Under the pieces are notes generated by a model, which ran no database searches, was not told where the DNA came from, and saw only the letters and a program-made list of their open reading frames with translations. A stretch of 63,855 nt of DNA, counting the filler. It is 4 parts of 4 records of this genome, joined end to end, with 100 filler letters (N's around TTAATTAATTAA, not from the genome) between each part and the next. Parts side by side here need not be neighbours in the genome. Positions count along the whole stretch, not along the records: positions 20,273 to 34,613 come from SRR31156797_975; 3 more parts are not named here. One strand, written 5' to 3'. The position numbers and the translations under genes are program-made. Every line of letters starts with the position of its first letter. The first letter of the stretch is position 1. Shown here piece after piece: positions 50 through 36,033 of the stretch.

Positions 50-119
50 TTTTTAAGTTAATCAGTTTGTGAATTGTGAAGCAGTCGCGGTGATTGCTTC
101 ACAGCGAGTCCAAAGTCAG

Positions 120-153
120 AAAAACCCCGGGGATCGGCTCCGGGGTTTTTTTT
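120..153 (+). terminator. Intrinsic terminator after dsrC
   Basis: AAAACCCCGG-loop-CCGGGGTTTTTTTT hairpin with U-tract. Confidence 0.85.
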
Positions 154-232
154 GTTTAATTTTCGATAGATTCTTTTAAAGTATATTTGCTGTGACCAGG
201 ATAATTGCCTATGATGGCAATAGGGAGATGTT

Positions 233-2602
233 TTGGTGGCAAATAAAGAGAACAGTGAAAAATATGAACTTTTCAAGGATGTGATGGAGCATCGGCTGCA
301 ACAGGCCGATATCCGTCAGGTGTTGAACCAGCTGTCCTTGGAAGATCGTGATTTTTTTGTCGAGACGCTGACAGGCACTTTCGACAAGTTGAACGCTGTC
401 CTTGAAGTCACACACCAGGTGTCGGATATCCTGACGCTTGATATCCTGTTCTCCCGCCTTGTGGAACTGACCACTGAGGCGCTACGCGCGGACAGGGGCA
501 CGATTTTTCTCAATGATCCCGAGACGGACGAGTTATTCTCGCGCGTGGCCATGGGGGAATTGACCCAGGAAATCCGGTTTCCCAACCATTTGGGTATAGC
601 AGGTTCAGTTTTTACTACTGGTGAGTCGATCATCATTGATGATGCCTACGCCGATCCCAGATTCAATCCGGAAGTGGACAAAAAAACCGGTTATCGCACT
701 CGCAATATAATCACCGCTCCCATACGGGGGAAGGATGGCATTGCCGTGGGTGTGGTCCAGCTGCTCAACAAGCATGAAAACAATTTTTCCGAACATGATC
801 TTTCCCTGCTGGAAGCCATGGCCGCCCAGGCTGCCTCGGCTCTGATCAACGCCCAACTGTTCGAGCAGGTCACCCGTGCCCGCAAGGAAGAGACGCAACT
901 CCTGGAGGTCACTAAGGCCATTTCCAAGGAAATCCATCTCAAACCCCTCATTAAGAGGATCATGTCCACCACGTCCATGCTTTTGGAGGCTGACCGCAGT
1001 ACTTTGTTTTTGAACGATGAAAAAACAAAAGAGTTGTGGTCCATGGTCGCTCAGGGAATGGAGACAAAGGAAATCCGTTTTCCCAACCATCTTGGTATTG
1101 CCGGATCGGTTTTTACGTCCGGAAACACGGTCAATATTCCGGACGCGTATGCAGATTCACGGTTTAACCCCGAGGTGGACAAGAAGACCGGGTACAGGAC
1201 CAATACCATTTTGTGCATGCCGGTGAAGAACAAGTCCGGAAAGATCATCGGCGTGGTCCAGTCCTTGAACAAGAAGGGCGGCCCGTTCACCGGCGTCGAT
1301 GAAAAACGGCTTCATGCTTTTTCGGCTCAGGCTTCCATAGCGATCGAGAATGCAACGCTTTTTGAAGAAGTCCTGACCATGAAAAATTACAACGAGTCCA
1401 TGCTTGAATCCATGGCTAACGGCGTGGTTACATTCAACGAGAACGGGATCGCCCAAAAATGCAATTTGTCTGCGGAACGTATTCTGGAAATTCGCGAAAT
1501 GGATGTCCTTGCCCAAAAGGCGGACGCGCTTTTTGTGGATGATAATGAGTGGATTGCGAACGCTATTTACAAAACTGTTACCGAAAATACGACTGAGTTG
1601 GTCATGGATGCTGAACTGGCCACCCACGGCAAGGTCAAGTCCGTGAATCTCTCGACCAAGCCCCTGGTTAATTCCAAGGGTGTGAGTCTGGGGGTACTGC
1701 TCGTCCTTGAAGATATTTCGAGCGAAAAGCGGCTCAAGGGTACTCTGGCCCGGTACATGACCAAGGAAGTAGCCGACCAGCTTATGGACAATGAGGCCAT
1801 ACTTGGGGGGCAGCTCAAGGAGGCTACGGTATTTTTTTCCGACATCCGCAGTTTTACCACACTGTCTGAATCCTTGGGGGCGCAGGAAACAGTCTCCATG
1901 CTTAATGACTATTTTACCGATATGGTGGAAATCCTTTTCGAACAGGGAGGGATACTGGACAAATACATCGGCGACGCAATTATGGCCGTGTTCGGCACGC
2001 CCTTTGCGACGGATCGCGACGCTGATCGCGCTGTTTTGTCAGCCATTGAAATGATGCGTTCCCTGCGCGATTTCAATGAACGCCGCCTTAAGGAAGGGCA
2101 CGATCCTATTGATATCGGAATAGGCCTGAATACCGCTCCGGTGGTCGTAGGCAACATCGGGTCTCTCAAGCGCATGGACTACACCGTGATTGGTGACGGG
2201 GTGAACCTGGCGGCCCGATTGGAGGGGGCTAACAAGATGTATGGTTCCAACATCCTGATCAGCGAGTTCACGGTCGCGGCTCTCAAGGACGATTATCTCC
2301 TGCGGGAAGCGGACCTTATTCAGGTTAAGGGCAAAACCGAGCCTGTGGCCATTTATGAGGTGCTTGACCATGCCAAGGAGGAGCAGCACCCTCTCCTCCG
2401 GGAGTTAATCCGCACCTTTGCCCATGGACTGGAAGTCTATCGCAATCGGGAATTCAAGGCTGCGCGGATGCTCTTTAAGGAGTGTTCAGCACTTTTGCCC
2501 GGTGACAAGATGTGCGCAATGTATATTAATCGATGCGACCACTTCATCTCCAACCCGCCACCAGCCGATTGGGACGGCGTTTGGGTCATGAAGAGCAAGT
2601 AG
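233..2602 (+). CDS. Class III adenylate cyclase, GAF-GAF-PAS-catalytic-TPR-like (CyaB architecture)
   Basis: Two GAF repeats (EIRFPNHLGIAGSVF...DAYAD.RFNPEVDKKTGYRT), a PAS-like segment, and catalytic motifs FSDIRSFT, KYIGDAIM, DYTVIGDGVNLAARLE. Confidence 0.9.
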   Translation: MVANKENSEKYELFKDVMEHRLQQADIRQVLNQLSLEDRDFFVETLTGTFDKLNAVLEVTHQVSDILTLDILFSRLVELTTEALRADRGTIFLNDPETDELFSRVAMGELTQEIRFPNHLGIAGSVFTTGESIIIDDAYADPRFNPEVDKKTGYRTRNIITAPIRGKDGIAVGVVQLLNKHENNFSEHDLSLLEAMAAQAASALINAQLFEQVTRARKEETQLLEVTKAISKEIHLKPLIKRIMSTTSMLLEADRSTLFLNDEKTKELWSMVAQGMETKEIRFPNHLGIAGSVFTSGNTVNIPDAYADSRFNPEVDKKTGYRTNTILCMPVKNKSGKIIGVVQSLNKKGGPFTGVDEKRLHAFSAQASIAIENATLFEEVLTMKNYNESMLESMANGVVTFNENGIAQKCNLSAERILEIREMDVLAQKADALFVDDNEWIANAIYKTVTENTTELVMDAELATHGKVKSVNLSTKPLVNSKGVSLGVLLVLEDISSEKRLKGTLARYMTKEVADQLMDNEAILGGQLKEATVFFSDIRSFTTLSESLGAQETVSMLNDYFTDMVEILFEQGGILDKYIGDAIMAVFGTPFATDRDADRAVLSAIEMMRSLRDFNERRLKEGHDPIDIGIGLNTAPVVVGNIGSLKRMDYTVIGDGVNLAARLEGANKMYGSNILISEFTVAALKDDYLLREADLIQVKGKTEPVAIYEVLDHAKEEQHPLLRELIRTFAHGLEVYRNREFKAARMLFKECSALLPGDKMCAMYINRCDHFISNPPPADWDGVWVMKSK

Positions 2603-9111: not shown

Positions 9112-9836
9112 GCCGCCTGCCTTGCTGAGCTGAATATGTTCAAGATGCGGTCTGCGGTGAGTTCTTTTGTGGGGCATCCCGAAAAAAGAACCTCGCGGTT
9201 GATACAGGTCACGCAATCACCGATTTTTTTCACTTCCATCAGGTCATGATGGATGATTAGGATGGTCACGCCTTTTGTTTTCAACTCCTGAAGTAAGCCG
9301 CGCATGATGGCTGCTCCGGCCTTATCCAGTCCGGTGGTTGGTTCATCAAGAATGAGCAGGGCAGGTTCAGGGAGGAGGGATTGTGCGAGGAGTACCCGTT
9401 GCCGTTCTCCGCCGGAAAGTTGGCCGAAAATGCGTGTGGATTTTTCTGCCATATTGACCCGTTCGAGAGCCGAATGGATCGCTTTACGGTCCTTGGCAGA
9501 GGGATTCATAAAAGCAGGCCTGTTCTGGCAGGTCATGGACATGAAATTTTCCACAGTAACCGGAAGGGTGGTGTCATAGTTCAGGGTTTGGGGCACGTAG
9601 CCGATGGTCCGATTTTCCTGCCAGTCTATGCTGATATTCCCGGAATGGGGCATCTGGCCGAGTAGGCAACGTAGCAAAGAGGTCTTGCCGCCGCCGTTGG
9701 GGCCGATAATGCAATGCAGTCCGCCGGAGAATATTTCAAAGTTCAAGTCTTTGAGGATGCTGGTATTACCGAGGGTCAGGCTGACGTTTTCGAAGTTGAT
9801 CGACGGACCGTATTTAGTTTGTATCATGGTGTTCAT
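9108..9836 (-). CDS. Metal ABC transporter ATPase (ZnuC/FpvD-like)
   Basis: GPNGGGKT, GYVPQ, LSGGERQR, LILDEP, IHHD. Confidence 0.92.
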   Translation of the reverse strand: MNTMIQTKYGPSINFENVSLTLGNTSILKDLNFEIFSGGLHCIIGPNGGGKTSLLRCLLGQMPHSGNISIDWQENRTIGYVPQTLNYDTTLPVTVENFMSMTCQNRPAFMNPSAKDRKAIHSALERVNMAEKSTRIFGQLSGGERQRVLLAQSLLPEPALLILDEPTTGLDKAGAAIMRGLLQELKTKGVTILIIHHDLMEVKKIGDCVTCINREVLFSGCPTKELTADRILNIFSSARQAA

Positions 9837-18095: not shown

Positions 18096-20172
18096 TTATT
18101 CGAGAGTTCTTGCTACTTCGACAACCTGGAAGGCTTCAATTACATCACCCTCTTTAATGTCGTTGTATTTTTCAAGACCGACACCACACTCGTAGCCCTT
18201 GGCCACTTCCTTGGCGTCATCCTTGAAGCGTTTCAGCGAAGTCAGCGCACCGGTGTAGATAACTACGCCGTCACGCAGCAGACGAACCTGAGCATGTCTG
18301 GTCAGCTTGCCATCGACCACGTAACAACCGGCGATGACACCGACTTTGGGAACGGAGAAGGTCTGTTTGACTTCTGCCTGACCGAGGTACTCTTCCTTGA
18401 TATCCGGGGAGAGCATGCCGCCCATAGCGTCTTTGATCTCGCCGACCAGCTTGTAGATGATGTCGTAGAAACGAATTTCCACTTCTTCTCGTTCTGCGAT
18501 TTCCTTGATCTTCACAGTCGGTCTTACGTTGAAGCCGATGATGATTGCCTGTGAAGCGGAAGCCAGCAGGATGTCGGATTCAGTGATCGCACCGGCACCG
18601 CCGTGGATAACGTCAACCTTGATCTCATCAGTAGCCAGTTTGGCAAGAGCTTCGTTAATAGCTTCAAGTGACCCCTGTACGTCAGCCTTGAGGACAACGT
18701 TGAGGGTCTGTGCATCCTGATCCGGTTTGGAAGCGAGGAAGGATTCAAGGGTAACCTTGGATTTTCCTGCCAGTTCGCGTTCACGGTGCTTGAGCTTACG
18801 TTCCTGCGCAATACGGCGGGCGACTTTGTCGTCAGCTACGCAGATAAACTCGTCACCGGCTTCGGGGATGCCGTCAAAACCCTGAATTTCAACCGGGAAG
18901 GCTGGACCAGCGGATTTGATTTTGCGACCACGGTCATCAAACATTGCGCGAACACGGCCATGGTAGAGACCGCAGACAAAGGGATCACCCTGGTTGATGG
19001 TACCTTCCTGAATGAGGACGGTTCCAACAGGACCACGGCCCTTGTCGAGTTTTGCTTCAACGATGTTACCGCGAGCACCCTTATCCGGGTTGGCTTTGAG
19101 TTCGAGAACTTCAGCCTGCAGCTGAACCATTTCGAGCAGGTTGTCGAGACCGGTTCTCTGTTTTGCTGAAACAGGAACGAACATGGTGTCGCCGCCCCAG
19201 TCTTCGGGAACGAGGTCGAACTCAGCAAGTTCACGCTGTACGCGTTCAGGATTGGCACCTTCTTTATCCATCTTGTTGACTGCAACAACGATGGGTACGC
19301 CGGCTGCCTTGGAGTGACTGATAGCTTCACGGGTCTGATCCATGACGCCGTCATCAGCAGCTACAACAAGGATAACAATATCGGTAACCTGTGCTCCGCG
19401 CATACGCATGGTGGTAAACGCTTCGTGACCGGGGGTATCGAGGAATACGATCTCACCGCGGTCGGTGGAAACGTGGTACGCACCAATGTGCTGAGTAATA
19501 CCACCTGCCTCGCCGTCGGTAACCGCACTGTGGCGGATAGCATCCAGCAGGGATGTTTTACCGTGGTCAACGTGACCCATGATGGTCACGATGGGCGGAC
19601 GGGGCTTAAGGTTTTCTTCTTTATCCACTTCGCTGGTCGGAATAAGCAGTTCTTCTTCGGAGTAAGATACGTTTTCAACTTCGTATTCAAACTCTGCGGC
19701 CAGCAGGGTCGTGGTATCAAGATCCAAAGACTGGTTAATAGTCGCCATTACACCGAGACCGAAAAGGGTCTTGATGAGTTCCTGAGCTTTAAGTCCCATC
19801 TGGTGGGCCATGTCGGAAAGGCGGATAGCTTCGTTGAACTTGATTTTACGTTTTGCAGCCTTGAGAGGTTTCTGAACAACAGGAGCCTGTTCAATACGGT
19901 TCTTACCTTTCTTGCCTCTTTTTTTGCCGCGAAACTTACTTTCAAGTTCTCTTTCGTGATCGTTCTTGCGGTGATCTTTACCGAATTCAACGACGCGTCT
20001 ATCTTTTTTGAATTTTTTCTTCTTGCTCTGATCATTGCCGGGAGCGGGAGCACCGGGAACGGGTCTACCGCCTCCTCCGCCGGGACGAGGACCACTGGGT
20101 CTGCCTCCGCCGGGACCGCCGGGACGACCTCCGCCGGGACCGCCGGGACGACCACCACCGGGTCTACCGCCA
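18096..20172 (-). CDS. infB: Translation initiation factor IF-2, 5'-truncated by the contig end
   Basis: [26 protein letters not shown]. The frame stays open upstream of the called Met, through Lys/Gly/Arg/Pro-rich sequence toward the gap. Confidence 0.97.
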
Positions 20173-20272
20173 NNNNNNNNNNNNNNNNNNNNNNNNNNNN
20201 NNNNNNNNNNNNNNNNTTAATTAATTAANNNNNNNNNNNNNNNNNNNNNNNNNNNNNNNNNNNNNNNNNNNN
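20173..20272. other. Artificial contig spacer (N-run + TTAATTAATTAA)
   Basis: Stop-codon linker flanked by Ns; composition and taxonomy change across it. Confidence 0.98.
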
Positions 20273-23200
20273 AATCTGAGCAATCCCGATTCGTTGTTTC
20301 ATACCCCCCGAGAAAGAGCCGATTTTGTCGTCTTTACGATCGTACATATGTACACTTTTTAGTACATATTCCAAACGTTCGTTTCTTGTCTTGTTGTCTT
20401 TGATTCCTTTTAATATGGATTGATAATCAAGAAAATCCCAGGCCGACATATTCTCATAAGTTCCGAAGGCCTGTGGCAGATAACCGATTAATCCCTGCAG
20501 TTCTTCTCTGTATTTTTGAGTATCTTTTCCATTTATCCAGATCTTTCCGTAGCTCTGTTCCAGTATTCCGCAAATAATTCTCATCATCGTCGATTTCCCT
20601 GCACCATTAGGTCCAAGCAAGCCAAACATTCCTGTTTTTATTTCTAACGAAACGCCATTTAATGCGCGGAAAGGCTTTTTCCTTTTTCCTATAATTGGTA
20701 TTTGTCTAACCATTGTAAAATACCCTCTGCGCAAACCACTAAGCCGACCTTCTATTCTGGCGATATTTAGATTTTTTTGCTGAATGTAATCGCCTGATTT
20801 GTATATAATTAATAGTAGAAGCCAAATAATTCCTATAAAAATTACCATTCCTATATTATCCCAGCGGAGAAAGAATATAAACAGGAAAATTAATGGAGGA
20901 ACCCAAAAAACAACATTCCCAATAATCTTATTTATTTTTAGATATCCCTTTTTAGTTGTAGCCTCATATTTGTTTCTCAGTACTTGTCTTAGAGGTGTGA
21001 ACAATAAAAAACCAAGGAAATAAACGACATGAGATAAAACCCACATCCAAAGGTTGTTGTCGAGGTAGAAGAAAGTAAAGTAAACAACAAAAACGAAAAG
21101 TGGGATTTGCCAAATCAGATCGTAAAAGTCGCGAATTGATTTATAATCTTTCAGGAGGCCAGCTCGTTTTCTGATATTGATTCCCGATTTCCATTCGCGT
21201 ACAAATCTGCTATCGCGATCGTAAATTTTAACTAATCTTCTGATTTTAATTGTAATCGGTTCGTCTTCGTCGATTACTTTTGTATTGGCTTGTCGTAAAC
21301 TTGTCATAATAAATGCTGTTACTCCCGGAATTAAAATTACCAGAATCATAAAATCGAGCATCTGCCATACTAAATCGTCGACTTCAAAATAGATGTAAAT
21401 TGCACCGACAATAAAAAGTATTAACTGACCAGCTTTTAACATCCAGTTTAGCGATTTCATCCAATTCAGTGTATTTTCCAGTCCGGAATATAATGTAGGA
21501 ATAAAAACAAGAGTAAGAATTGTACTGAATGCCAGACCACCAATAACTACAATTGCGAATGGAGCTCCAATCATGCCAACATATTCCGATTGTCCCATGG
21601 CCAGCGGCATCATAGCAACGATGGTAGTTATTGCTGTAATTAAAATAGGACGAACCCTGGAAAGCCCGGCAGTGATTAATGCCCGCGATTTTCTATGGCC
21701 TCTTTTTCTGAGAATATTGGTATAGTCTATAAGAATAATACCGTTGTTTACCACAATTCCCAGTAAAATCAGAAATCCCATTAATGTATTAGCCGATAGC
21801 AAACCGTTACCTGTAAATAGTAAAGCAAGCAGAGAGCCAATTGCTGCCAATGGTATCGAAAACATTAAAACAAAAGGTGTTATTAATGATTCAAATACCG
21901 ATGCCAAAATCATTATAATTAATAAAAATGCAGCACCAATAAGAAAGTAGAATTCAGAGAATTGATCTTCTTCATGAATAACTTCGATGGCAATTCCGCT
22001 GGGAATTTTATATGAAGCAACAATTTCATCAATTTCCAGACGGTAAGCTTCCAGCAAATCTTTTGATTCTTCTGCCTCATCGACAAAACTATAAGTAACT
22101 TCAATTTGTTTTTCCTGGTTAACCCGATTTATGGATGACATACCTTCATCGTAAACAAATTCGGTAATATCATTCAAATCAAAATTAGCACCCGAGGTGT
22201 TGGTAATTTGCAATTGCTTAAGGTCGTCAATGGTTCTCTCGTTTTCTTCATCCTCTTGGTCTTCTACTTTTTCTTTAATAATAATATCATATTCTTCATC
22301 TGCTTGTTTGAAGGTCGACCCGGAAGTTATTTCGCTAGGAAAAGAACTGAGTCCGGAGGAAATGGTATTCAACGAAAGATCGTTTTCTGTAAGCAACAGT
22401 TGATCGAAAAACATATGAACCTCGGGCTGACTACGGGATATATTTGTGCTGACATTATTTATTGATTCGAGATCTTCTATGAAGTATTCCAAATCTTCAG
22501 CAACGCCACTCATTTCTTCAAAATTTTCGCCTTTAATTACGATTCGTTCCTGTTCGGTTCCAATTCCTAAAAATGAGTTGAACCCCATGGCTCCTCCACG
22601 TCCTGCGCCACCACCGTAACGTGCACTTGAAGCTGGTGCTGTAAGCTCTACGTCGGCCACCCGGATATTTCTTACTCTTTCTTCGACATCCGATTTTATT
22701 TCGTCGATTGTTCGTTCGTCAATATCAAAATAGTCTTCTTTAAGAACAACTGTCAATACAGCTTCCTCGTCTTCGATATTGGAAACTATATCTTCTTTTT
22801 CCGCAATGTCCTCAAGCCTGGCTTCTACATCCGCAACAATCTGGTCGGCTTTGTCTAAGGTTGAACCAGAAGGCATGGTGACATACACCTGGAACTGAGT
22901 CTCCTCAGCTTCTTCTAGCGTAGAAATACTAACTGCAAGCACGCCAAAAACAGTAATAAAAAATACCACAACTGCACCAATTACTGTTGCTGCAGGTTTT
23001 CTCATACTTGATTTTAAGAGCAATATATAAATCTGTAAAATCCGGTTATTTGTAGTTACTTTTTCATAAAAAATATTGTGCGACGATTTACCTTTAAGTA
23101 AGAGATGCGCACCCATTGGTATTAATAAAAGAGCAACAAATAATGAGATTACCAGCGTAGATATAATTGAGATCCCGATATGATTTCCATAAAGTTTAAT

Positions 23201-24556
23201 GTTAGCATCGCTTGAAAAAACGAAGGGTAAGAATACTGTAATTGTGGTAAGTGTTGCAGCTACAATAGATCTCCAAACTTCTTTTGTCCCCTGTACAACA
23301 GCATTTTCTGCATCGTATCTTTTTCCTGAGAGCCGATAAATATTTTCAAGAACAACCACACTGTTGTCAAGCAACATTCCGATGGCCAAAACCAGTCCAA
23401 TTAATGTTAAACTATTCAGCGAAATATTAAATGCATAAAACAAATTAAATGCTGAATAAACGGATATTGGAATGGCTAAGGTGATGAATGATACAATTTT
23501 GAAATTCTTCAGAAAAATCCAAAGAATAAATATGGCCAATAGTCCACCAACGAGAGCTAAATTAATAATCTGATTAATATTTTCCTCCATGGTTTCAGCC
23601 GTGTTAGACTGAACCACAATCTGAACATCGTACTGGGCAAGTTCTTTGTTAAGCTCTAAAATTTTATCTTCAACCCGATGTGCCAAATCAATCAGGTTTG
23701 CCTGAGAATCGCCAACCAGTGTCATACTTACCGATTCGAGTCCATTCACACGACTTATACTGGTTCTTTCTTTTACACCAAAATAAACTTCGGCAACATC
23801 TTTCAAATAAATGGGCCCATCGGCAACAACAATATTTTCAATGTCGGTTACCAGTTCGTAGTCGGCCGAAACATGCACAAAATATTCTGTTTGAGCATCG
23901 TGTACATAACCAATAAAAGTTCTTTCGGTAGCTCCATTGTTAATTGCATTTCTGATTTGCAGTGGCGTAATATTGTATGCTTCACAAACTGCTGCGTCGT
24001 ACGTAATTTCAATGGATTTTTCACTGCCGCCAAACACTGTAACAGAGGCAATTCCATCAATATTCTCGATAGGAGTTGTTATTTCCTGGTCGACAATACT
24101 TCTAATTCTGTCGGCACCTTCGCTTCCCCGAATTTGCAATTCCATGAACTGCGAGGAAAGTTGTTGGGTATTTACCCTGTTTACAATTACTGTAAAATTA
24201 TCGTCCAGCGTACCGGCAACCTGATTTATTGTTTCCTCAAGTTTTAAGTAGGTGTATTTAAAATTTACATTTTGGTTGAAACTAACCTGAATTGAAGCTG
24301 ACCGGCTGTTTATCGATGTCTCTATGCTTTCAACTCCTTCCATTGTGCCAATTGCCCCTTCGATTTGAATTACAGCCTGGTTTTCCATGTAATTCGGATC
24401 GACCTCGTTACGGGATTGAATCTGAACAAATAGCATTGGAAGTTCAGCATTTGGTATTAACTCAACTTGTAGCTTATTATAGGAAACAACGCCTAAAACG
24501 GTTAGTCCTATAAAAAGCATACTGATGAGTATTTTTCTATTTATGATGAATTTCAT
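20273..24556 (-). CDS. RND permease fused to extra TM segments and a C-terminal ABC ATPase (3'-truncated by the contig end)
   Basis: First ~1025 aa form a full RND (GMLLDNSVVVLENI; GIVVNNGII; RVRPILIT). The same frame continues into GPNGAGKST, GYLPQ, FSGGMKQRIGIAQ. Confidence 0.9.
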
Positions 24557-24574: not shown

Positions 24575-27500
24575 TTAAACTTGCTCAGCTACTGATTTCT
24601 TCACAAAAAGACCTTTAAATCTGTCTAATACATCGTAAACACAAGGAATTACTACTAATGTTAATAATGTTGATGTTACCAGACCTCCAATTACGGCCAG
24701 TGCCATTGGAGACCTAAGTGCGGCACTTTCGCCAAAACCAATAGTTAACGGTAATAATGCAAGTATGGTTGTTAAACTTGTCATAATTATTGGTCGAATT
24801 CGTTGTTGCCCGGCTTGTAAAATGGCATCTTTCCGTGGCATTCCTTCTCGTATTAACTGGTTAATTCTATCGACCAAAATGATGGAGTCGTTAACGGCAA
24901 TACCAACCAACATAATTATACCGATTACTGCCATCATGTTTAATGTTTTACCCATGATAAAGAAAGTGACCACACTTCCTACAACAGCGAGTGGAATGGT
25001 TAATAATATGGTAAATGGGTGAATCAGAGATTCGAATTGCGATGCCATAACCATATAAACGAGAACGATTGAAAGCATCAATGCAAAGCTAAGGTTACTC
25101 ATCGATTCTTGTCTTTTTTCTTCTTCACCGGTTATCAGAATATTATATTCTGGTGGCAATTGTATATCGGCGGTAATTGTTCTGATATTTGCAGCAACAT
25201 GGTCGAGAGCAACTCCTTTATCCATTTGTGCAGTTACTTTTCCAATTCGGTTTTGATTTCGGCGGTATATTTCTTTTGGTGAAACGCCATAAGTAATATC
25301 TGCGATTTCATCGAGTCTAAAAATCTGGTCTCCTGAGGTTATGGTAAGCTCATTTACTTCGGCTAACGTTTTTTCAGGGACTTTAATCGTAATATCCTGA
25401 AGTTCTCCATCTTTTTCAAGCTGACCGGCTTCGGTACCTTCCAGCTGGTTTTGCAGTTGAGAAATTACATTACTTACGTCGATGCCATAAAAACCAGCTC
25501 TTAATCGATCGACTTCTATCTCGATTTCAGGAGCCCCATTTTCGATGGAAGATTGAATATTGAAAAGACCATTCAGTTCCAACATTCTTTCTTTCACCAC
25601 GTTCACAATTTCTTCAATCTTTTCCATCTCCTCACCGCGAATTTCAACAACCAGTGGATCTTCATCGGTACCAAGAATAGATTTCAGTGCGCTTTCTTCT
25701 TTAGAAAAGCTTAATTCCAATCCTTCGATTCCGGATGCCAGGTTATTGATGGTTGTGATAACGGCATCGGAAGAAATACTTGTGTCATCTCTTAATACAA
25801 TTTTAATTTCAGCTGTATTTTCTCCCTGGAATACTGCATCTTCATCGCTTTCCAAACCAGAAGAGGGGCCACTGTGTGAATATATTAATTCCAGATCTTC
25901 ACCTAAATAATCGGTAACAATTCTTTCTATATTTTTTACGGTTGACTCTGTGCGTTCAAGTTTTGTCCCTTCCTGAAGTTTTACGTTCATTGTAAATTCG
26001 TTGGTTTCGCTTTTTGGCATAAATTCGGTACCTATTTGTGGAACCAGCAAAACCGAACCACCCACCAGAATTGTGGCAATAACAATAACAATCCATTTTG
26101 CCTTTAATACTTTTTCCAGAAAACGGCCATATCCGGTAACTTTTACCGATTTATGTTTCACAGGAATAGTTTTGTTTTTATACAGCCTGTGGTACAACAT
26201 GGGGATTAAAAATATGGCAACAAAAAGAGAAGAAATAAGTGAAAATGCCACAGTCCATGCTTCATCTTTAAACAATTCACCTGAAGCCCCGTGTATATAA
26301 ACAATTGGTAAAAAGACCACAATTGTTGTGAGGGTTGATGCAGTTATTGCGCCACCGACCTGCGATGTTCCAGTAATTGCGGCATCTTTTGCACTCATTC
26401 CGCTTTCGTGATTCCGGAAGATATTTTCCATAACAACAATGGCATTATCGACCAGCATTCCTGCACCCAGTGCCAATCCTCCCAGGGTCATTATATTAAT
26501 GGTGAGATTATTAAAGTACATGAGGTTAAATGTTGCAATTATTGAAATTGGAATTGCGACACTTACAATAAGTGTTGTACCAAAACGGCGTAAGAAAATA
26601 AATAAAATTACAACCGCCAGCAAAATTCCTAATAATGCCGATTCCTGAACCTCGCCAATTGCCTGGCTAATAAAAGTACCCTGATTCGAAACAAGAGCTA
26701 GCTTATAACCGGGAAGTGCCTTTTCAATATCGGCCAATGATTCTTTAATTTGGTCGACCGCCTTAACGGTATTGTATTGTGTTTCTTTGTAAATTGAAAG
26801 GCCAATGCATCTTTGTCCGTTGATGTGAACAATATTTGTCGGTTCTTTATTTTGAATGGAAACCGTTGCTACATCTTTCATGTAGATAGGAGCCATTTCT
26901 ATATTTGGTTGGCCTCCGTCTGTTTCTGCTCTTACCGCTTTATACCCAACAATAAGATTTTCAAAATCCTCGACTTCCTCCAATAAACTGATTCCTTTTA
27001 CTACATACTGTGTTCCAAATTCACTGATTGTTCCACCCGATACACTTTGGTTAAAATTTGCAATACGGGTGCTAATATCGCTCATGGTCAGATTTTGTGC
27101 ATCTAACCGATAGGGATCTGTTTCAATTATAATTTCACTTTCTTCTTGTCCTGAAAGATCTACTTCTGCTACTCCCTCTAACCGAACAAGTTCATTTCGG
27201 ATATAATTCTCGGCCACTTTTCTTAACTCGTTCATATCGGTAATTTCGCTGTGAGTTAAGCCAAGAACCATTACCGCGGAAGTATTTGGGTCGTGCTGAG
27301 TAATTTGCATTTCGTCTACGCTTGCACTTAATGAACTAAGCGCTTTTTGCAGATTCAGAAATGCTTCGTCCATATCTTTATCCCAGTCGTATTCAACTGT
27401 AATTTGTGCTGTACCAACTTTAGAAATGGAAGAAACCTGAATAACATCTTCTTCCTGGCTTGCAAGAGATTCAATGTCTTCAACAAATTGTTTTTCCATC

Positions 27501-27676
27501 TCTTCGGGTGGTTTCTGTCCCGACGTTATCTCAACAAATATTCGTGGAGAATTAAGGTCGGGAAATAAGTCAACACCCAGTTTATCGAATGATATATAGC
27601 CCAAAAGAATAACAGCTAAGACTACCATTAAAACGGTTACCGGGTAATTGACAGAAAATTGAGTTAATTTCTTCAT
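24575..27676 (-). CDS. RND (AcrB/AcrD/AcrF family) permease
   Basis: 1033 aa; LGVDLFPD, GMLVDNAIVVMENI, ASQFES..HPF, RIRPIIMT, GGL.TSTLLTL. Confidence 0.93.
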   Translation of the reverse strand: MKKLTQFSVNYPVTVLMVVLAVILLGYISFDKLGVDLFPDLNSPRIFVEITSGQKPPEEMEKQFVEDIESLASQEEDVIQVSSISKVGTAQITVEYDWDKDMDEAFLNLQKALSSLSASVDEMQITQHDPNTSAVMVLGLTHSEITDMNELRKVAENYIRNELVRLEGVAEVDLSGQEESEIIIETDPYRLDAQNLTMSDISTRIANFNQSVSGGTISEFGTQYVVKGISLLEEVEDFENLIVGYKAVRAETDGGQPNIEMAPIYMKDVATVSIQNKEPTNIVHINGQRCIGLSIYKETQYNTVKAVDQIKESLADIEKALPGYKLALVSNQGTFISQAIGEVQESALLGILLAVVILFIFLRRFGTTLIVSVAIPISIIATFNLMYFNNLTINIMTLGGLALGAGMLVDNAIVVMENIFRNHESGMSAKDAAITGTSQVGGAITASTLTTIVVFLPIVYIHGASGELFKDEAWTVAFSLISSLFVAIFLIPMLYHRLYKNKTIPVKHKSVKVTGYGRFLEKVLKAKWIVIVIATILVGGSVLLVPQIGTEFMPKSETNEFTMNVKLQEGTKLERTESTVKNIERIVTDYLGEDLELIYSHSGPSSGLESDEDAVFQGENTAEIKIVLRDDTSISSDAVITTINNLASGIEGLELSFSKEESALKSILGTDEDPLVVEIRGEEMEKIEEIVNVVKERMLELNGLFNIQSSIENGAPEIEIEVDRLRAGFYGIDVSNVISQLQNQLEGTEAGQLEKDGELQDITIKVPEKTLAEVNELTITSGDQIFRLDEIADITYGVSPKEIYRRNQNRIGKVTAQMDKGVALDHVAANIRTITADIQLPPEYNILITGEEEKRQESMSNLSFALMLSIVLVYMVMASQFESLIHPFTILLTIPLAVVGSVVTFFIMGKTLNMMAVIGIIMLVGIAVNDSIILVDRINQLIREGMPRKDAILQAGQQRIRPIIMTSLTTILALLPLTIGFGESAALRSPMALAVIGGLVTSTLLTLVVIPCVYDVLDRFKGLFVKKSVAEQV

Positions 27677-27708: not shown

Positions 27709-28767
27709 TTATAGTTCAACTCTAACTTTTGAACGATTGCGCAATGTTTCAAATCCTTCTGTAATTAATCTGTCATTTCTTTCAAGCCCGTCAATTACTT
27801 CAACGTATTCCTGATTTTGAAGACCAATGGTAATGATCCGCATTTCAGCAGTATTATTTCCGCTAACAATAAATACGTATTTCCCCCGATTTCCTGACAT
27901 TATAATGTCTTTCGGAATTACAATAGTACTATCGCTTTGGGCAATAATAATATCTGCTTTTACAAACATACCCGGGCGTAATTTTAATTCCGGATTGTTT
28001 ATTTCAATTGTACCTTCAAAAGTTCTTGTTTCGGTACTTATCATTGGAGATATTTCGGTTAATGTTCCTTTTAGTGTATCTTCTGTTAAAGTATAACTGG
28101 TAACAATTGCTTCCTGTCTTTCCGATACATCAGCTAACCTTTTCTCAGGAAGATTTATTTCAAGGTACATTTTGCTGTAATTCATTAAGGTTACTACTTC
28201 GGTTCCGGAAGCAACGATTGTTCCTTTTGTATAATATGGTAAGTCAACAATAATACCGTTAAAGGGAGCAATCACATCCATTTTTTTAAGGTTGATAAGG
28301 GCACTTTCGTACGATGATTGTGCATTTAACATGGAAACTTCTGAATTACGTACATCGTATTGTGTAACACCTCCTTTTTCAAATAACGATTTTTGTTTTT
28401 CATATTCATCTTTTGAAATTTCAAGGTCCAGTTCAACAGATTCCAGTCCGATGTTATTTACATATTCTTCATCATCGAGATGAACAATTACGTCGCCTGC
28501 TTTAACCTGGTCGCCCAATTTAAAAGGTTTCCCGGTTCGGGGATTATTCATTACACTAAATTTACCACGCATTTCGGTAGCCAGCGTTGTTTCATGTGTT
28601 GCTTTCGCTGTCCCCGTGGTATTAATATATTCACTAATGTTTTGAAGCGTAACATTTTCAGCCGTAACCGGAGATGCCAATTCAGTCCCCTCACTTTGAG
28701 TTTGATTGTTGCAGGATATTACAGTAGCAACAACTGCCAGAAGTAATAGTAATTTTATATTTTTCAT
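27709..28767 (-). CDS. Periplasmic adaptor / membrane fusion lipoprotein
   Basis: Lipobox ISC; IAPFNG, LRPGMFV, G.......EV..GL. Confidence 0.92.
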   Translation of the reverse strand: MKNIKLLLLLAVVATVISCNNQTQSEGTELASPVTAENVTLQNISEYINTTGTAKATHETTLATEMRGKFSVMNNPRTGKPFKLGDQVKAGDVIVHLDDEEYVNNIGLESVELDLEISKDEYEKQKSLFEKGGVTQYDVRNSEVSMLNAQSSYESALINLKKMDVIAPFNGIIVDLPYYTKGTIVASGTEVVTLMNYSKMYLEINLPEKRLADVSERQEAIVTSYTLTEDTLKGTLTEISPMISTETRTFEGTIEINNPELKLRPGMFVKADIIIAQSDSTIVIPKDIIMSGNRGKYVFIVSGNNTAEMRIITIGLQNQEYVEVIDGLERNDRLITEGFETLRNRSKVRVEL

Positions 28768-28787: not shown

Positions 28788-30290
28788 TTAATTATTTTCG
28801 TTTATATACAAATCTGCCGGCATAATTGGCCGATTGGTTTCAAAATCGTATAACGATTGAATTTTAAGGTTTAACAATTCTAATTTATAATTTACTTGAG
28901 CCTGGGAGTAAGAGATTTGAGCATCAGATAATTGAGTTTGATATTGACTTAATTCCATACCTGTTAGTTCTCCGTTGTTATATCTTTCGTTACTTAAATC
29001 GTAAGTAAGCTGTGCGTTTTTTACGTTTTGTTCGGCAATTTGTATTTGTCTCCATTGATTTTGTAAACTACGATACACCTCACGAATGGAGATTATAATA
29101 TCTTTTTCCTGTTCTTCATAATCGATTTGGATAGATTCCATAGCTGCTTCCTGTGCGGCAACCCTGGCCTTTTTCTCTCCCCAGTCGAAAATTGGAATAT
29201 TAAATGAAACACCTACCGAAGGGCTTTTGGTAGGATTGTCGTACAAATTATTTAAAGCAGGGTTGTCGCCTGTTAAACCTAACCGCAAGTTCATTTGTCC
29301 CGAAAATTCATTACTTGCTTTTGTTTGTATCATCTGAAACTGGCTGGTTTCGATATCAATTTCTCTTTGGCGCAATTCCATCCGGTTTGCTAATCCATTT
29401 TCTATGGCTTTTTCTAATTCAACCGAAATGGCTTGCTCTGTGGTGAGTACTAAATCTAATATTGTAAAGTCCTGATATAAATCCATGCCCAGTGTTAACT
29501 TCAACTGGTCTTTTGCATTTTCGTAAGTAACGGATTGTTGTTCAACCGACGATTGTGCCTGCATCAGGTTTAGTTCTGCCTGGTATAATTCTTCCATAGC
29601 AACTAGTCCTGCGTCTGCTTTATTTTTTACAATATCATAATTTGCTTGTGTATTCGCCAATTCATCATTTGCAATATTCAGGTTTCTTTGTTCCATATAA
29701 ACCAAGTAGAATTGCTGGGTAACATTTCTTTCCATGTTTAAACGTTGTAAAGCATAACTAATATTTGCGTTTTCATATGTCAGCTCTAACTCCTTTAGTT
29801 CCATTTTTTGTCGGTTGTAGGTAAATAACGGCTGATTATAACTTAAGTACAATTCATTCGAAAACACTTCGCTTTCTGAATCATTTGCTGAAGAATTACT
29901 GCTCTGCCAGCCAAATGTATTATTGAGCGAGATTGTTCCATCGGAGAAAAGGATGGGTTGTGAAACAGTAAAAGTTGTATTCGTTTCAAGAGTCTCGTTC
30001 GTGTACCACTCCGAAACTCTTGTATCGAACTGTCTTCTTTGACTATAATTTACAGGATTTAAAGTTAAAGAGAATCTTGACTTCAAGGCAGCTCTTTGAG
30101 CCTCTAAACTTTTTTGTCTTTGTTCAATGTTTAGTTTAGATTGTTTTATACTTGGACTTTGTGTTTCGGCATACTCCAATGCTTTTGCAAGGGTAAGCAT
30201 TTCCTGTGCATTTATTCCAGACACGGTGAATGTCAAAATAAACCCTATTATTACAATCTTAAGTAACGGTTTAAGTTTTAATAAATTCAT
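28788..30290 (-). CDS. TolC-family outer membrane factor
   Basis: Signal peptide, QP(L/I)F and IPIFDWG repeats, RY..G motif. Confidence 0.9.
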   Translation of the reverse strand: MNLLKLKPLLKIVIIGFILTFTVSGINAQEMLTLAKALEYAETQSPSIKQSKLNIEQRQKSLEAQRAALKSRFSLTLNPVNYSQRRQFDTRVSEWYTNETLETNTTFTVSQPILFSDGTISLNNTFGWQSSNSSANDSESEVFSNELYLSYNQPLFTYNRQKMELKELELTYENANISYALQRLNMERNVTQQFYLVYMEQRNLNIANDELANTQANYDIVKNKADAGLVAMEELYQAELNLMQAQSSVEQQSVTYENAKDQLKLTLGMDLYQDFTILDLVLTTEQAISVELEKAIENGLANRMELRQREIDIETSQFQMIQTKASNEFSGQMNLRLGLTGDNPALNNLYDNPTKSPSVGVSFNIPIFDWGEKKARVAAQEAAMESIQIDYEEQEKDIIISIREVYRSLQNQWRQIQIAEQNVKNAQLTYDLSNERYNNGELTGMELSQYQTQLSDAQISYSQAQVNYKLELLNLKIQSLYDFETNRPIMPADLYINENN

Positions 30291-30309: not shown

Positions 30310-33300
30310 TTATAGCTTTACAAATTTTACTGCATCGGCGTAGACCGAACTCAGTTTCGTGTCATTGGATAGTTCAATAATTGCAGTTCCTTCAGAGAAA
30401 CCAAATGTTCCTATCGGATTCCATCCTTCTTCTGTGTCGTTAGGGTTTAAAAGTTGTTCAACAGCACCATCATTACAGTGTATTGTAAAATGATAATCTC
30501 CGCTTTGACTTCCACCGAACCTAAAGCCACCTCTTCCACCTCTTCCTCTCATCATTGGATTGTTAAACATGTGATAGTGAACTTCATATGTGCCTGCTTC
30601 TTTAATGGGTACGTTCCATTTTGCCACTTGTGAACCATCGCCACTACTTACATAATACCCGGAAAGGATATAATTTCCATAAAACGCTGTATTTGTAATT
30701 GCGGTCCAGCTTGTAGGAGGTCTCCAGTTATTTATTCCTTCATATTTTAAGCTGCTTTCATCTTCTGTTATTAACCATTTCTCCAGCAGGCTTTCTTTTT
30801 TATTGTTTGTAATTTCGAAACCCGGATCTTCGTTATCAACGATAATCTCTCCGGGTTGTATTTTAAGAACCGGACTATCTGAAATTTTTTGACCTTCAAC
30901 CGGGGTTATTCTGGTGTCTTCTTCAATTTCCCTGAAATTCTCGGTTAATACCTGTGGAATATTTTGTGAAGTCATGGTATTTACCATTACCATTCGGGGC
31001 TCGGCATCTAAAATAAAGCTAACTTCTTTTGATTGATGTGGTTCCAGATAAATTAATTCGTTTACCATATCACTGGATCCACCGCCGCCACCTCGGCCCA
31101 TTCCCGGGAAACCGCCGCCACTGCTAAGCATAAATGATAACTTAATTAATCCTTCAGTTTCTGAGAAATTGGTTGCCTTAAGCGAAATCATTGTTTTCAT
31201 CATTTCGCCCGATTTAACTTTAACGGCATCGATTGGTGAAACAAGGAATCCAGGTAAATCTTTAGCGGTAAACCAATCGTCCATTACCGGAATTAATTCA
31301 ATACCAAATTCTTCTTTTAGCTTCTGGTCAAATTCTTCAAATGAGATATTTTTAAACCGGTACTCTTTTAGTATTTTTTGCAGAAATTCAGAAAACTCTT
31401 CTTCTCCTGCTTCGTATTGAATTTTGGAGAATAAATAATCGCCCTTTAATTTAATTACATCGTTTATAATATCTTTCTGTTCAATATCTGCTAAGATCTC
31501 TTCAAATGTATTTTCCTGTAATGCAATATTTGCTTTTTCTTCTCCGCTTAAACCTGTCATATTGCTCATGAAAATTGATCTGACATCAATATCCTGATTT
31601 TTAATATATGCTTCAAATACCCTGTTGGTAATTGGCCAGGAATCTGATTGTATATTATTTTGGAAATTATAAAAAAGCGGGAAAATAAAATACGGATTTT
31701 TTTCCTGATTAATACTGCCTGGCATTGGTGGCCCGCCCATCATCATTCCTCCGCCAAAACTGGTAGATTCTTCTTCTGTAAAGTTCCTTGTCATGCGCCC
31801 CAATACACTAATTTGAACATCCTTGGGAGACATTGCTCCTCCACGGTTTCCAAATCGTTCCATCCTTTTTTTAGTACCTTCAAAATCAAATTCCCCAATC
31901 ATATAACCTTTTTCAGGAATTAAAATTTGTTCGGGCTGAATGTTTTCTTGCAACGATGTCCACGAACGTTCATAGGTTTTCATTTGAGCGGGGACTTCAA
32001 CCAGCGATAACCTGTCGAAAGCATATTCCAGATTATATGTTCTTTCGAAATCTTCGAGGTATTCGTTAATAATACTTGGAATGGTATCGGAAATTTCAGT
32101 AAAAATTCCGGAAAAAAAATCGTGACCTTCGATAATCCAAATGCCATATTCTAAATTATCGGTTTCAAATTTTTTATATTCATAATTACCGATTGTGAGG
32201 GAAAGCTGTGTTAGTGAATTTTCATTATCAAATGTAAACTGTCCGGTTTCTGTTTCAGTTATTTTACCTTGCGAGATGGCTTTTAATCCGGGTTCTGTTT
32301 TAACTTTTAAATTATAATCGACAAATTGGTTATGGCTCCAGCTAACATCTTCTGAACTATATGTTACACCTGCTTTGGGGTACCAGGAAGACTCGGGTGT
32401 TAACATCACATAATCGGGAGTCAGAAAAGCGTAACGTTTATCAACATTAATTACAAATTTTCCATATTTCTCCTGAATAGTTTCTTCGTCGATGTCTAAA
32501 TAACACAGATTTTCATCAATCTTACCAGAGTAGTTAAAAATAACTTTTGATTCTTCTCCCGGACTCAGGTTAACGCCTTCTGAAATAAAAATTAAATGAT
32601 TTTCTCTTTTAAATTGAACCTCTTTTCCGTTATATTCAATTTTTGAAATTTTCAGTCCGGTATTTAAATTAAAGATCAATTGATTTAGAACTACATCGTT
32701 TTCGTTTTTAATCTCCATTTCAGAAGTTACTCCAATTGTTGCACCCTGATGTTCTAAATTTATTGTGTGGGTTAAAACTATTGGCAGCTTTTCTTTTACA
32801 TATTTATTGTTGAGTTCAATCGCACTTATTCGTTGTTCTTCTTTTTGTTTAAATTGATCGATGTGTCTGAATGCGAAATAACTACCAATGCCAATAAACA
32901 ACACACTAAAAATGAGGGATACATATGTCATTGTTTCGGATTGTGGTAGCCTTTTTAGCAGGAAAATAGTAAGAAAAATAAATCCGGTTCCAAGAAATAA
33001 ATAAATTCCCCTGTGATTTAGTATTACATCGGTATTTCCAAAGCCAACGATATCGGAACTCAGCATTGGAATATTGTAGGCCATGTAATCGAAAATATAA
33101 TAGAATTTTGCCTGCAGCAGGAACAGTGTAATTCCAATATATCCTAATACAAGTACAAATGTAATTGCTTGGTTTCTAATTACACTCATTAAAAGAAACG
33201 ATAATCCCATTATAAATATTAATGTGGGCACACTGATGGCAACCAGGTAAAAACCGTAGGAAATCCAGTTAACTGATGTATTTTGAGCAAGCATATTAAA

Positions 33301-33696
33301 GATTAATGCCAATGCCACAACCAGGATATTTAACACCAGAAAAACCTGTAGGTTACCCCATGTTTTTCCAATTACATATTCGCTATTGGTCATTGAACGC
33401 ATATAAATAACTTCGGTTGTGTCTAATTTTTTGTCGCGTTTCAAAAAGTCGGAAGCTAAAAAGACAGCAATTACCGCCTGGGCAATATTTAAAATTAACA
33501 GATTGAAGTATGGAATGGCACTCGGGATACTGCGAATGGCCCAGCTTTGTTCACCACCACCCTGAATAACCATTGCAAAGTTGATCCCAAAAAGTACGAG
33601 TATTGAAATGACACTAAAAATTCTGAAAAACCAACTCCGGAATAATGTTTTCCGCTCGTATTTAGCTATTGAAAATATATTGTGTAATGAAATCAT
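30310..33696 (-). CDS. Giant ABC-2-type permease with M1-aminopeptidase-like ectodomain and C-terminal Golvesin/xanthan-lyase-CBM-like domain
   Basis: IAKYERK.L.R N-terminus plus several TM helices; SWYP and M1-like beta region; IIVDNEDPGF...AG.YEV...YADAVKF C-terminal module; no HExxH seen. Confidence 0.7.
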   Translation of the reverse strand: MISLHNIFSIAKYERKTLFRSWFFRIFSVISILVLFGINFAMVIQGGGEQSWAIRSIPSAIPYFNLLILNIAQAVIAVFLASDFLKRDKKLDTTEVIYMRSMTNSEYVIGKTWGNLQVFLVLNILVVALALIFNMLAQNTSVNWISYGFYLVAISVPTLIFIMGLSFLLMSVIRNQAITFVLVLGYIGITLFLLQAKFYYIFDYMAYNIPMLSSDIVGFGNTDVILNHRGIYLFLGTGFIFLTIFLLKRLPQSETMTYVSLIFSVLFIGIGSYFAFRHIDQFKQKEEQRISAIELNNKYVKEKLPIVLTHTINLEHQGATIGVTSEMEIKNENDVVLNQLIFNLNTGLKISKIEYNGKEVQFKRENHLIFISEGVNLSPGEESKVIFNYSGKIDENLCYLDIDEETIQEKYGKFVINVDKRYAFLTPDYVMLTPESSWYPKAGVTYSSEDVSWSHNQFVDYNLKVKTEPGLKAISQGKITETETGQFTFDNENSLTQLSLTIGNYEYKKFETDNLEYGIWIIEGHDFFSGIFTEISDTIPSIINEYLEDFERTYNLEYAFDRLSLVEVPAQMKTYERSWTSLQENIQPEQILIPEKGYMIGEFDFEGTKKRMERFGNRGGAMSPKDVQISVLGRMTRNFTEEESTSFGGGMMMGGPPMPGSINQEKNPYFIFPLFYNFQNNIQSDSWPITNRVFEAYIKNQDIDVRSIFMSNMTGLSGEEKANIALQENTFEEILADIEQKDIINDVIKLKGDYLFSKIQYEAGEEEFSEFLQKILKEYRFKNISFEEFDQKLKEEFGIELIPVMDDWFTAKDLPGFLVSPIDAVKVKSGEMMKTMISLKATNFSETEGLIKLSFMLSSGGGFPGMGRGGGGGSSDMVNELIYLEPHQSKEVSFILDAEPRMVMVNTMTSQNIPQVLTENFREIEEDTRITPVEGQKISDSPVLKIQPGEIIVDNEDPGFEITNNKKESLLEKWLITEDESSLKYEGINNWRPPTSWTAITNTAFYGNYILSGYYVSSGDGSQVAKWNVPIKEAGTYEVHYHMFNNPMMRGRGGRGGFRFGGSQSGDYHFTIHCNDGAVEQLLNPNDTEEGWNPIGTFGFSEGTAIIELSNDTKLSSVYADAVKFVKL

Positions 33697-33713: not shown

Positions 33714-34607
33714 TTATGCGTTAGACCATTGATTAAGTTTATTCTCCATAAAATGTACATAAGCATGTTCCAGGTTTGGGGTAATTAGTTCACCTGTAAA
33801 TCCATCAATATTTTCAGAAACAACCTGAACCTCCCAACCGGCAGCAACCGGGATAGTTGAAATTACCGGATATTTTTCATTTATTTCCAGGTATTCACTT
33901 TCAGAAGCTTTTATTAACCAAACACTACCTTCTGCTTCTTTAACCAATTGTTCCGGAGAACCTGCAAATGCAAGTTCGCCTCTATTTAATAATGCCATTT
34001 TATCGCAGGTACTTGAAATGTCGCCAACAATATGCGTTGAGAGGATAATTACCACATCGCGTGTACTAATATTCGACAGAAGATTTCTGAAACGTATTCT
34101 TTCTTCAGGATCCAGTCCGGTTGTTGGTTCGTCGACAATAATAATTTTAGGATCATTTATTAATGCCTGTGCAATTCCAAGTCGCCGTTTCATCCCCCCT
34201 GAAAGTTTGTTTGCATTTCTGTCGCGTGCCTCGTATAAGCCAACTTCTTCCAGCATTTGGTCTACTGCGGTTTTTCTTGCAGCGCCGTTTTTCATGCCGG
34301 CAAGCCGGGCTGTATAATCCAGAAATTCGTAGGTTTTAAGTTTTGAAAAGAAACTAAAATCTTGTGGTAAATAACCCAGCATCGAACGAATTTCTCTTCT
34401 GTTTTTTGCTAAATCCAATCCATCAATGGTAACTTTTCCGTTTGAAGGTTTCATTAATGTAACAAGTATTCGCATTAATGTTGATTTGCCAGCTCCGTTT
34501 GGTCCCAATAATCCAAACATTCCATTTGGAATTTCAAGATTTAAATTCTTAATGGCATAATTCCCGTTGGGATATACTTTGTTTAGATTTTCGATTTTTA
34601 TATGCAC
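33714..34607 (-). CDS. ABC transporter ATP-binding protein
   Basis: GPNGAGKST, GYLPQ, LSGGMKRR, IVDEPT.GLDP, STHIV. Confidence 0.95.
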   Translation of the reverse strand: MHIKIENLNKVYPNGNYAIKNLNLEIPNGMFGLLGPNGAGKSTLMRILVTLMKPSNGKVTIDGLDLAKNRREIRSMLGYLPQDFSFFSKLKTYEFLDYTARLAGMKNGAARKTAVDQMLEEVGLYEARDRNANKLSGGMKRRLGIAQALINDPKIIIVDEPTTGLDPEERIRFRNLLSNISTRDVVIILSTHIVGDISSTCDKMALLNRGELAFAGSPEQLVKEAEGSVWLIKASESEYLEINEKYPVISTIPVAAGWEVQVVSENIDGFTGELITPNLEHAYVHFMENKLNQWSNA

Positions 34608-36011: not shown

Positions 36012-36033
36012 TATCAAATCCATGAGTGATGGA

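Follow-up and report, generated by a model that had tools for sequence, protein, structure and literature searches.

Can the nucleotide-binding domain (NBD) of an ATP-binding cassette (ABC) protein carry a membrane domain within its own first β-hairpin? The question is raised by a gene in which a resistance-nodulation-division (RND) permease is fused to an ABC ATPase, located at 20274..24556 on the minus strand of a stretch of DNA of 63,855 nucleotides, filler included (hereafter the window). Four contigs make up the window, with N runs around TTAATTAATTAA at the joints (20173-20272, 34614-34713 and 55269-55368). The gene lies on the contig SRR31156797_975 (20273-34613), which holds six genes, all on the minus strand. 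An earlier note on this DNA had claimed that the first strand of the NBD is separated from the remaining domain by four hydrophobic segments, i.e., that a membrane anchor is inserted into the first β-hairpin. Strand conservation among homologs and fold models of relatives support this claim, and neither of the two outcomes which the note had named as refuting it was obtained. The gene very probably encodes an RND permease fused to an ABC NBD that is split by a membrane insert of four helices.

By translation, the open reading frame comprises 1427 complete codons. It is truncated on its 3' side, where the contig stops (20273), and the window copy ends in SGGMKQRIGIAQI, after the signature motif. 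Full-length relatives have 1555-1580 AA, and only in these are Walker B, the H-loop and the C-terminal domain visible. When the window was searched by tblastn, the other three contigs gave no match to the missing part of the NBD or to the permease gene which follows the fusion in relatives; the absence of this permease from the window is explained by the contig ends.

The encoded protein starts with an AcrB-type RND permease domain of 12 transmembrane (TM) helices (residues 2-1024, 21485..24553, minus strand), which was identified by Pfam and by sequence matches to MdtB, MexB and AcrB in the PDB. The Pfam model ACR_tran reaches 536 bits against a cut-off of 28 (E = 2.1e-160, profile positions 3-1018 of 1021), and the domain stays below the cut-offs of the NCBIfam models RND_permease_2 and RND_permease_1 (431.8 versus 1250) and MdtB/MuxB (235.7 versus 1584). 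On the same strand follow two extra TM helices (TM13 and TM14, residues about 1040-1088, 21293..21439), the displaced strand β1 with the motif I.I..L.K.Y....RF.REW (residues 1101-1122, 21191..21256), an insert of 184 codons between β1 and β2 which contains an amphipathic helix, four TM helices and a basic linker (20669..21220), and the remaining NBD as far as it is present in the window, i.e., β2, Walker A (GPNGAGKS), Q-loop and signature (SGGMKQR; 20276..20668). Translation reproduced the coordinates of the earlier note exactly: IKIRRLVKIY (residues 1103-1112) is encoded at 21250-21221 and the 184 codons at 21220-20669, after which RALNGVSLEI (20668-20639) and GLLGPNGAGKS are read. Pfam assigns residues 2-1024 to ACR_tran and residues 1299-1427 to ABC_tran, with no match between them. 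Database names of the relatives are generic ('ATP-binding cassette domain-containing protein', 'efflux RND transporter permease subunit' or a JGI double label).

Conservation and predicted fold of the split domain

Homologs were searched among 1.84 billion cluster representatives, giving 111 matches at E ≤ 1e-30, among them ~25 full-length proteins of 1550-1590 AA with 30-53% identity over the region. An alignment of 35 representatives, the window protein and P0006 was built; P0272, which lacks the insert, and P0006, which is redundant with the window protein, were dropped, and conservation was counted over 34 representatives, excluding the window's own row. The strand upstream of the insert is conserved in these homologs: K1110 is kept in 34/34, Y1112 in 32/34, W1122 in 31/34, L1108 in 30/34 and I1103, the first isoleucine of the motif, in 28/34. 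Mean column entropy is 1.72 bits for the strand motif, compared to 2.4-3.1 bits for the adjacent helices and loops and 1.39 bits for the NBD. We take I.I..L.K.Y to be the usual strand 1 of ABC domains, with the final aromatic residue being the A-loop residue which stacks on adenine, and Y1112 presumably occupies this A-loop position. Its retention would be explained by adenine stacking.

Profile and sequence alignments place the same boundary. Full-length ATPase models of NCBIfam align to the fusion from profile position 5-18 onward and to a free ATPase encoded on the same contig from position 1, and the GldA profile aligns to the fusion at positions 16-211. Using MAFFT, the N-terminus of the free ATPase was aligned to the upstream strand across a gap of ~190 columns.

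The fold was predicted with AlphaFold2 for two relatives. The first model was computed from a 48-sequence alignment with P0133 as first sequence, a fragment encoded on a 2433-nt contig which has a cluster mate of 1567 AA; it reached a predicted local distance difference test score (pLDDT) of 87.7 and a predicted template modelling score (pTM) of 0.73. The second comprised the C-terminal 541 residues of a Maribellus maritimus protein (locus L034), which is 80% identical to the window protein over the matched 398-residue region, and reached a pLDDT of 85.3. The counterpart of IKIRRLVKIY was predicted as a confident β-strand of the NBD in both models (E64-73, block pLDDT 95, and E74-83, respectively; strand blocks ~92-95 over both models), and TM13/TM14 correspond to H2-19/H23-52 in the model of P0133 and to H9-29/H33-59 in that of L034. 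Structural alignment with VIA-align to 1vpl gave Z-scores of 28.0 and 27.9 at a root-mean-square deviation (rmsd) of 1.6 Å, with 235 of 238 residues aligned and model ranges 62..524 and 72..538 set against chain residues 2..239. For 4yer_B, Z-scores were 28.9 and 29.4, and 264 residues were aligned, beginning with chain residue 1. In each search, all 50 alignments listed start just before the strand, at model residue 57-63 or 67-73. Since these small NBD chains are aligned over nearly all of their residues, the upstream strand must be the counterpart of their strand 1, and the insert is skipped.

A natural counterpart is provided by P0272 (1425 AA, found on two contigs), an RND-NBD fusion with the same type of NBD but without the four helices. 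Here, the β1 sequence IEIRNLCKIY is followed after 28 residues by ALKKIDLKI. This protein could be ancestral-like or secondarily shortened. No consistent unfused split NBD was found among the best 120 matches of 218-697 AA, as judged without their genomic context; most of these are labelled partial or lie on contigs < 10 kb, and for the 11 located on contigs of 15 kb or more, the internal position of the start is arbitrary.

The four hydrophobic segments reported for the 184 codons were recovered by hydropathy analysis at residues ~1146-1166, 1170-1189, 1210-1230 and 1236-1256, and helices of the models were used as further support for these four TM helices (21059-21121, 20990-21049, 20867-20929 and 20789-20851, minus strand). 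The same analysis located the two TM-like helices which had been noted between the RND domain and the displaced strand at ~1040-1060 (TM13) and ~1067-1088 (TM14). Segment charges agree with the four segments of the insert: lysine and arginine residues number 15, 6 and 11 in the predicted cytoplasmic loops and 0, 0 and 1 in the predicted outer loops, which fits the predicted topology by the positive-inside pattern. The C-terminus of RND permeases is cytoplasmic. TM13 and TM14 would bring the chain back to the cytoplasm, and with two plus four helices, both the strand and the NBD come to lie inside the cell. Due to the even number of helices in the insert, both of its ends are cytoplasmic, and strand 1 can thus fold beside strand 2. 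No match to the insert was found in Pfam, NCBIfam or the Protein Atlas (Atlas query: residues 1036-1298).

Two further observations on the membrane helices were set aside. An internal duplication of TM hairpins was searched using hhalign, which gave a probability of 77% over 33 columns for TM13-14 versus TM15-16, a value considered too weak and prone to composition effects, and 40% and 1% for the other two pairs. With Foldseek, the whole model matched ABCA transporters over > 450 columns, but at an rmsd of ~20 Å, and these matches were not accepted as evidence for a type-V membrane domain.

Catalytic motifs, neighbouring genes and distribution

The NBD in the window matches Pfam ABC_tran (PF00005) with 77.8 bits versus a cut-off of 25 over profile positions 1-121 of 137, the match being cut by the contig end. 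The window copy contains GPNGAGKS, LPQ and SGGMKQR, which are invariant among the 48 members aligned. Across this 48-row alignment, Walker A (G..G.NGAGK.T), Q-loop (PQ), signature (SGGM.QR), Walker B (VDEPT) and H-loop (STH) are invariant; VVDEPTAGLD and STH, which lie beyond the contig end in the window, are present and invariant in the full-length relatives. The set is completed by β1 with its A-loop aromatic residue, found 184 residues upstream and included in the fold models. The best NCBIfam ATPase matches are below their cut-offs (GldA_ABC_ATP, 171.9 versus 402.6 bits; drrA, 166 versus 312.45), and no named subfamily therefore applies to the fused NBD. The fused NBD is read as an ABC-2-type domain which, in the full-length relatives, is catalytically complete.

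A second, unfused RND permease of 1033 AA (RND1, 24575..27676, minus strand; Pfam ACR_tran 749.7 bits) is 29% identical to the fused RND domain in a global alignment (316 identities in 1092 columns). Compared to MdtB (9lyq_B), the fused domain reads LLDNS instead of VVDDA in TM4 and VVNNG instead of VKKNA in TM10, with the arginine of TM11 kept; RND1 reads LVDNA and AVNDS at the corresponding sites. These positions are presumably those of the AcrB proton relay (D407/D408/K940/R971). Relative to MdtB, both paralogues (21470-24556 and 24575-27676, minus strand) thus have no TM10 lysine and carry Asp-Asn for Asp-Asp in TM4, and RND1 has an aspartate one position later in TM10. The TM4 aspartate and the TM11 arginine are conserved in the fused RND family.

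The remaining genes of the contig, all on the minus strand, are a periplasmic adaptor (27709..28767; Pfam HlyD_D23, NCBIfam RND_mfp 212 bits versus a cut-off of 94.9), a TolC-like outer-membrane factor (OMF; 28788..30290; Pfam OEP 151.5 bits), a membrane protein of 1128 AA (30310..33696) and the free ABC-2-type ATPase (33714..34607). The 1128-AA protein has an ABC-2 permease-like region at its N-terminus as well as M1-peptidase-like and Golvesin_C regions. Of its Pfam matches, only Golvesin_C passes (50.2 bits versus 31.6), ABC2_membrane_2 (25.2 versus 27.2) and Peptidase_M1 (25.7 versus 27.7) remaining just below their cut-offs, and no NCBIfam family was matched. The free ATPase has a contiguous β1-β2 hairpin; its N-terminus reads ..IKIENLNKVYPNGNYAIKNLNLEI, as had been given by the earlier note, with IKIENLNKVY as first strand. 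It is 42% identical to the fusion over 272 residues, including the C-terminal domain, and this similarity begins only at its residue 18.

Relatives were collected by a pattern scan of GTDB species genomes, in which 93 relatives were found among 118 candidate stretches and 80 loci were kept. Of the 42 loci that measure 18 kb or more, 40 have the order OMF, adaptor, RND1 and RND2::NBD; L053 and L058 are the exceptions. Upstream of the OMF gene, tblastn detected the C-terminus of the 1128-AA protein (59 matches among 80 loci), with 40/40 listed matches at locus positions 1-1221. In L034, a protein of 238 AA with six TM helices (11639-12355) starts 12 nt after the fusion gene, and a homolog follows the fusion in 75/80 loci. 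This family has the invariant motifs FYP..GIQND.D and WN.FLNP; of its 24 aligned members, five match Pfam ABC2_membrane_3 (best E = 6.2e-8) and two match ABC2_membrane_2. We read the 238-AA protein as a putative ABC-2 permease of divergent sequence, which would be the likely partner of the fused NBD in the membrane.

Most of the relatives belong to the Prolixibacteraceae (Maribellus, Mariniphaga, Draconibacterium and Tangfeifania); other titles in the scan were Labilibaculum, Marinifilum, Ancylomarina, a Saprospiraceae metagenome-assembled genome (MAG) and a MAG labelled Chlorobiota. A 210-residue query comprising strand and insert had a match in 132 of 151 sampled genomes of the Bacteroidota family of L034. 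The open frames around these matches mostly measure 1566-1604 AA, and no stop codon was found inside any listed match. In an even sample across the phylum, 2/301 genomes had a match, one of which is the genome of L034 itself. More distant members carry the source names Latescibacterota and candidate division KSB1.

Some features of the window lie outside this contig. The G+C content per piece is about 0.51, 0.37 and 0.42-0.46, rising to 0.63 at the right end; at the first joint, an artificial junction of N runs around TTAATTAATTAA as given above, it changes from ~0.51 to 0.37. In view of these strong differences, the contigs may not be neighbours and may even stem from more than one genome. 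The last ~140 bases before this joint (20030-20172, plus strand) consist of repeated ccgggacg/ccgccggg units, either a Gly/Pro/Arg-rich coding repeat or a simple repeat, and extend to the end of the contig. Another stretch resembling ABC ATPases (9168-9470, minus strand), also located on the first contig, matches the C-terminal NBD part of P0006 (tblastn, E = 1.3e-12). A tyrosine recombinase with a Phage_integrase and an N-terminal SAM-like domain is encoded at 36022-37002 (plus strand); as it lies on another contig, it gives no evidence of operon mobility.

A putative coupled exporter and competing explanations

Anatomy, conservation, predicted fold and operon are results of computation; the following mechanism is proposed beyond them. 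A single polypeptide contains, in order, a 12-TM RND permease, two TM helices, the β1 strand with the A-loop tyrosine, the four-TM insert and the remaining NBD. The ATP site would be completed by strand 1, folded back next to strand 2, while the insert together with TM13-14 would staple the NBD under the membrane via the β1-β2 hairpin. Two fused protomers would then pair their NBDs to hydrolyse ATP, thereby driving the small ABC-2 permease encoded downstream. The six extra helices would dock this permease onto a heteromeric, MdtB2C-like RND pump with adaptor and OMF. In this way, export across the envelope by RND and OMF would be physically linked to a step at the inner membrane that is driven by ATP. 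That the fusion works with the OMF, the adaptor and RND1 and drives an ABC-2 permease docked on the RND pump is an inferred function and has, in our estimation, about an even chance of being correct. Structure and function taken together, the whole is probably the best explanation of the locus. A more far-reaching version is a dual-energy, envelope-spanning exporter in which NBD closure is transmitted via the hairpin helices and TM13-14 to both the ABC-2 permease and the RND protomer, such that ATP and proton flow act in one cycle. This is quite unlikely; if true, substrates taken up from the cytoplasm or the inner leaflet would reach the exterior of the cell in one coupled cycle.

Several points weigh against the proposed explanation. 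Pairing of β1 and β2 was inferred from aligned ranges and residue counts and not from hydrogen bonds, and AlphaFold2 may have imposed a learned NBD fold. RND pumps are trimers, and the pairing of two NBDs beneath such a trimer is not accounted for by the model. The free ATPase beside a large ABC-2-like protein makes the partner of each NBD ambiguous. As to the putative permease, 19 of the 24 members of its family have no ABC2_membrane_3 match, the L034 member, which belongs to the window's closest relative, matches no ABC2_membrane model in Pfam, and a profile search of the family against the PDB gave only chance matches (BCL6, E = 0.02). Since the TM4 aspartate and the TM11 arginine are retained in the sequence, the fused RND domain may still use protons. 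Finally, the NBD in the window is incomplete and the downstream permease lies beyond the contig end, so the functional model leans on relatives.

The structural part could be wrong in two ways. If the upstream motif were an unrelated conserved cytoplasmic segment, the NBD would have to work without a canonical β1 or be a degenerate regulatory module. Indeed, the 10-residue match between IKIENLNKVY of the free ATPase and the upstream strand is not significant when taken alone (BLASTP, E = 2.9), and when the motif is written as a loose regular expression, the six-frame translation of the window (127,706 residues) contains it 7 times. It is homolog conservation and the fold models which raise the match above chance: an invariant lysine and a near-invariant leucine and tyrosine fit the β1/A-loop pattern, two models and 100/100 listed structural alignments include the strand, and the motif stands 28 residues before β2 in the insert-less P0272. 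In addition, all catalytic motifs are invariant. This explanation is considered very improbable. A chimeric join or a read-through of separate RND, membrane and ATPase genes would be conceivable, as this is a draft assembly of short contigs in which the gene is cut by a contig end. Such an assembly or annotation artefact is effectively refuted by an uninterrupted frame of ~1570 AA in isolates and long contigs, including Maribellus comscasis (7.8-Mb contig) and Tangfeifania, and by the lack of an internal stop codon in any listed genome match.

Other explanations concern the partner of the fused NBD rather than its fold. The NBDs could act directly on the RND protomer via TM12-TM18, giving an ATP-energised or ATP-gated RND pump in which proton coupling is replaced or gated and the downstream protein is accessory. 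This would agree with the covalent connection of the NBD to RND TM12, with the hairpin wired into membrane helices, and with asparagine in place of the second TM4 aspartate and of the TM10 lysine of MdtB, a lysine also missing from RND1, provided that these residues form the relay as we assume. Against it stand the conserved TM4 aspartate and TM11 arginine and the membership of the NBD in the ABC-2 group, whose usual partners are ABC-2 permeases; a candidate for one follows at the distance and in the proportion of loci given above. We regard an ATP-driven RND pump as rather unlikely. The fused NBD might instead form a heterodimer with the free ATPase and drive the 1128-AA ABC-2/M1-like protein, which would tether that transporter to the RND pump. 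In favour of this, the 42% identity of the two NBDs extends into the C-terminal domain, and the large protein is encoded just upstream of the OMF gene in the relatives mentioned. However, each of the two NBDs already has a gene for a membrane partner beside it, and a heterodimer is not demanded by the motifs, which are complete in both; this possibility is judged improbable.

In textbooks, RND pumps are proton-driven and ABC pumps are ATP-driven. A conserved protein joining both challenges this clean division, and an RND-ABC fusion could bring to light a route by which export from the inner membrane to the outside proceeds in two steps. Few folds have been studied as much as the NBD, which here would tolerate a membrane domain inside a hairpin whose first strand carries part of the ATP site. 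If true, a TM-split NBD represents a new type of coupling between ABC motor and membrane, through the hairpin rather than through the coupling helix alone, and is a natural test case for how NBD motion is transmitted to membrane helices. Occurring almost throughout one marine and sediment family of Bacteroidota with cultured genera that are not pathogenic (Maribellus, Tangfeifania, Mariniphaga and Labilibaculum), the system is experimentally tractable.

Relation to known systems

Neither an RND-ABC fusion nor a TM-split NBD was found to be described in the literature searched, with subscription journals and part of PubMed Central being outside the search; this is consistent with the remark of the earlier note that the topology is not known from described ABC ATPases. 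In the accessible part of the review PMC8277102, passages with 'fused' or 'single polypeptide' concern MacB and SecDF only. The fusion is a real and conserved variant, and apparently an undescribed one.

In its gene content, the operon resembles MdtABC-TolC and MuxABC-OpmB, each with two tandem RND paralogues, one adaptor and one OMF, and MdtB/MuxB and MdtC models are among the NCBIfam matches of the fusion system, all below their cut-offs. The Mdt and Mux proteins have neither an NBD nor extra TM helices, and the TM10 lysine is missing from both paralogues here. PMC7015380 gives the stoichiometry MdtB2C1, a precedent for two RND paralogues in one pump.

MacAB-TolC likewise combines an ATP-driven inner-membrane component with an adaptor and a TolC-like duct, and structural alignment also matched the NBD of MacB (5lj9_B), with Z-scores of 25.9 and 26.5. 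MacB consists of an N-terminal NBD, four TM helices and a periplasmic domain and has no RND module, thus differing from the fusion in both architecture and gene order. The best structural matches of the NBD itself are ABC-2-type ATPases with a C-terminal domain, namely TM_1403 of T. maritima (4yer) and TM0544 (1vpl), which are DrrA/GldA-like. Such ATPases are free soluble subunits with a contiguous hairpin, whereas the hairpin is split in the fusion.

The nearest precedent for the site of the insert is CFTR. According to PMC2217481, the 'regulatory insertion' of CFTR NBD1 (residues 404-435) lies between NBD strands 1 and 2, i.e., in the same β1-β2 hairpin. The CFTR insertion comprises ~30 residues and is soluble, mobile and phosphorylated, whereas the insert of the fusion comprises 184 residues with four conserved TM helices; moreover, its host is a bacterial ABC-2-type NBD behind an RND permease. 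The likeness to CFTR is an analogy of site and not homology.

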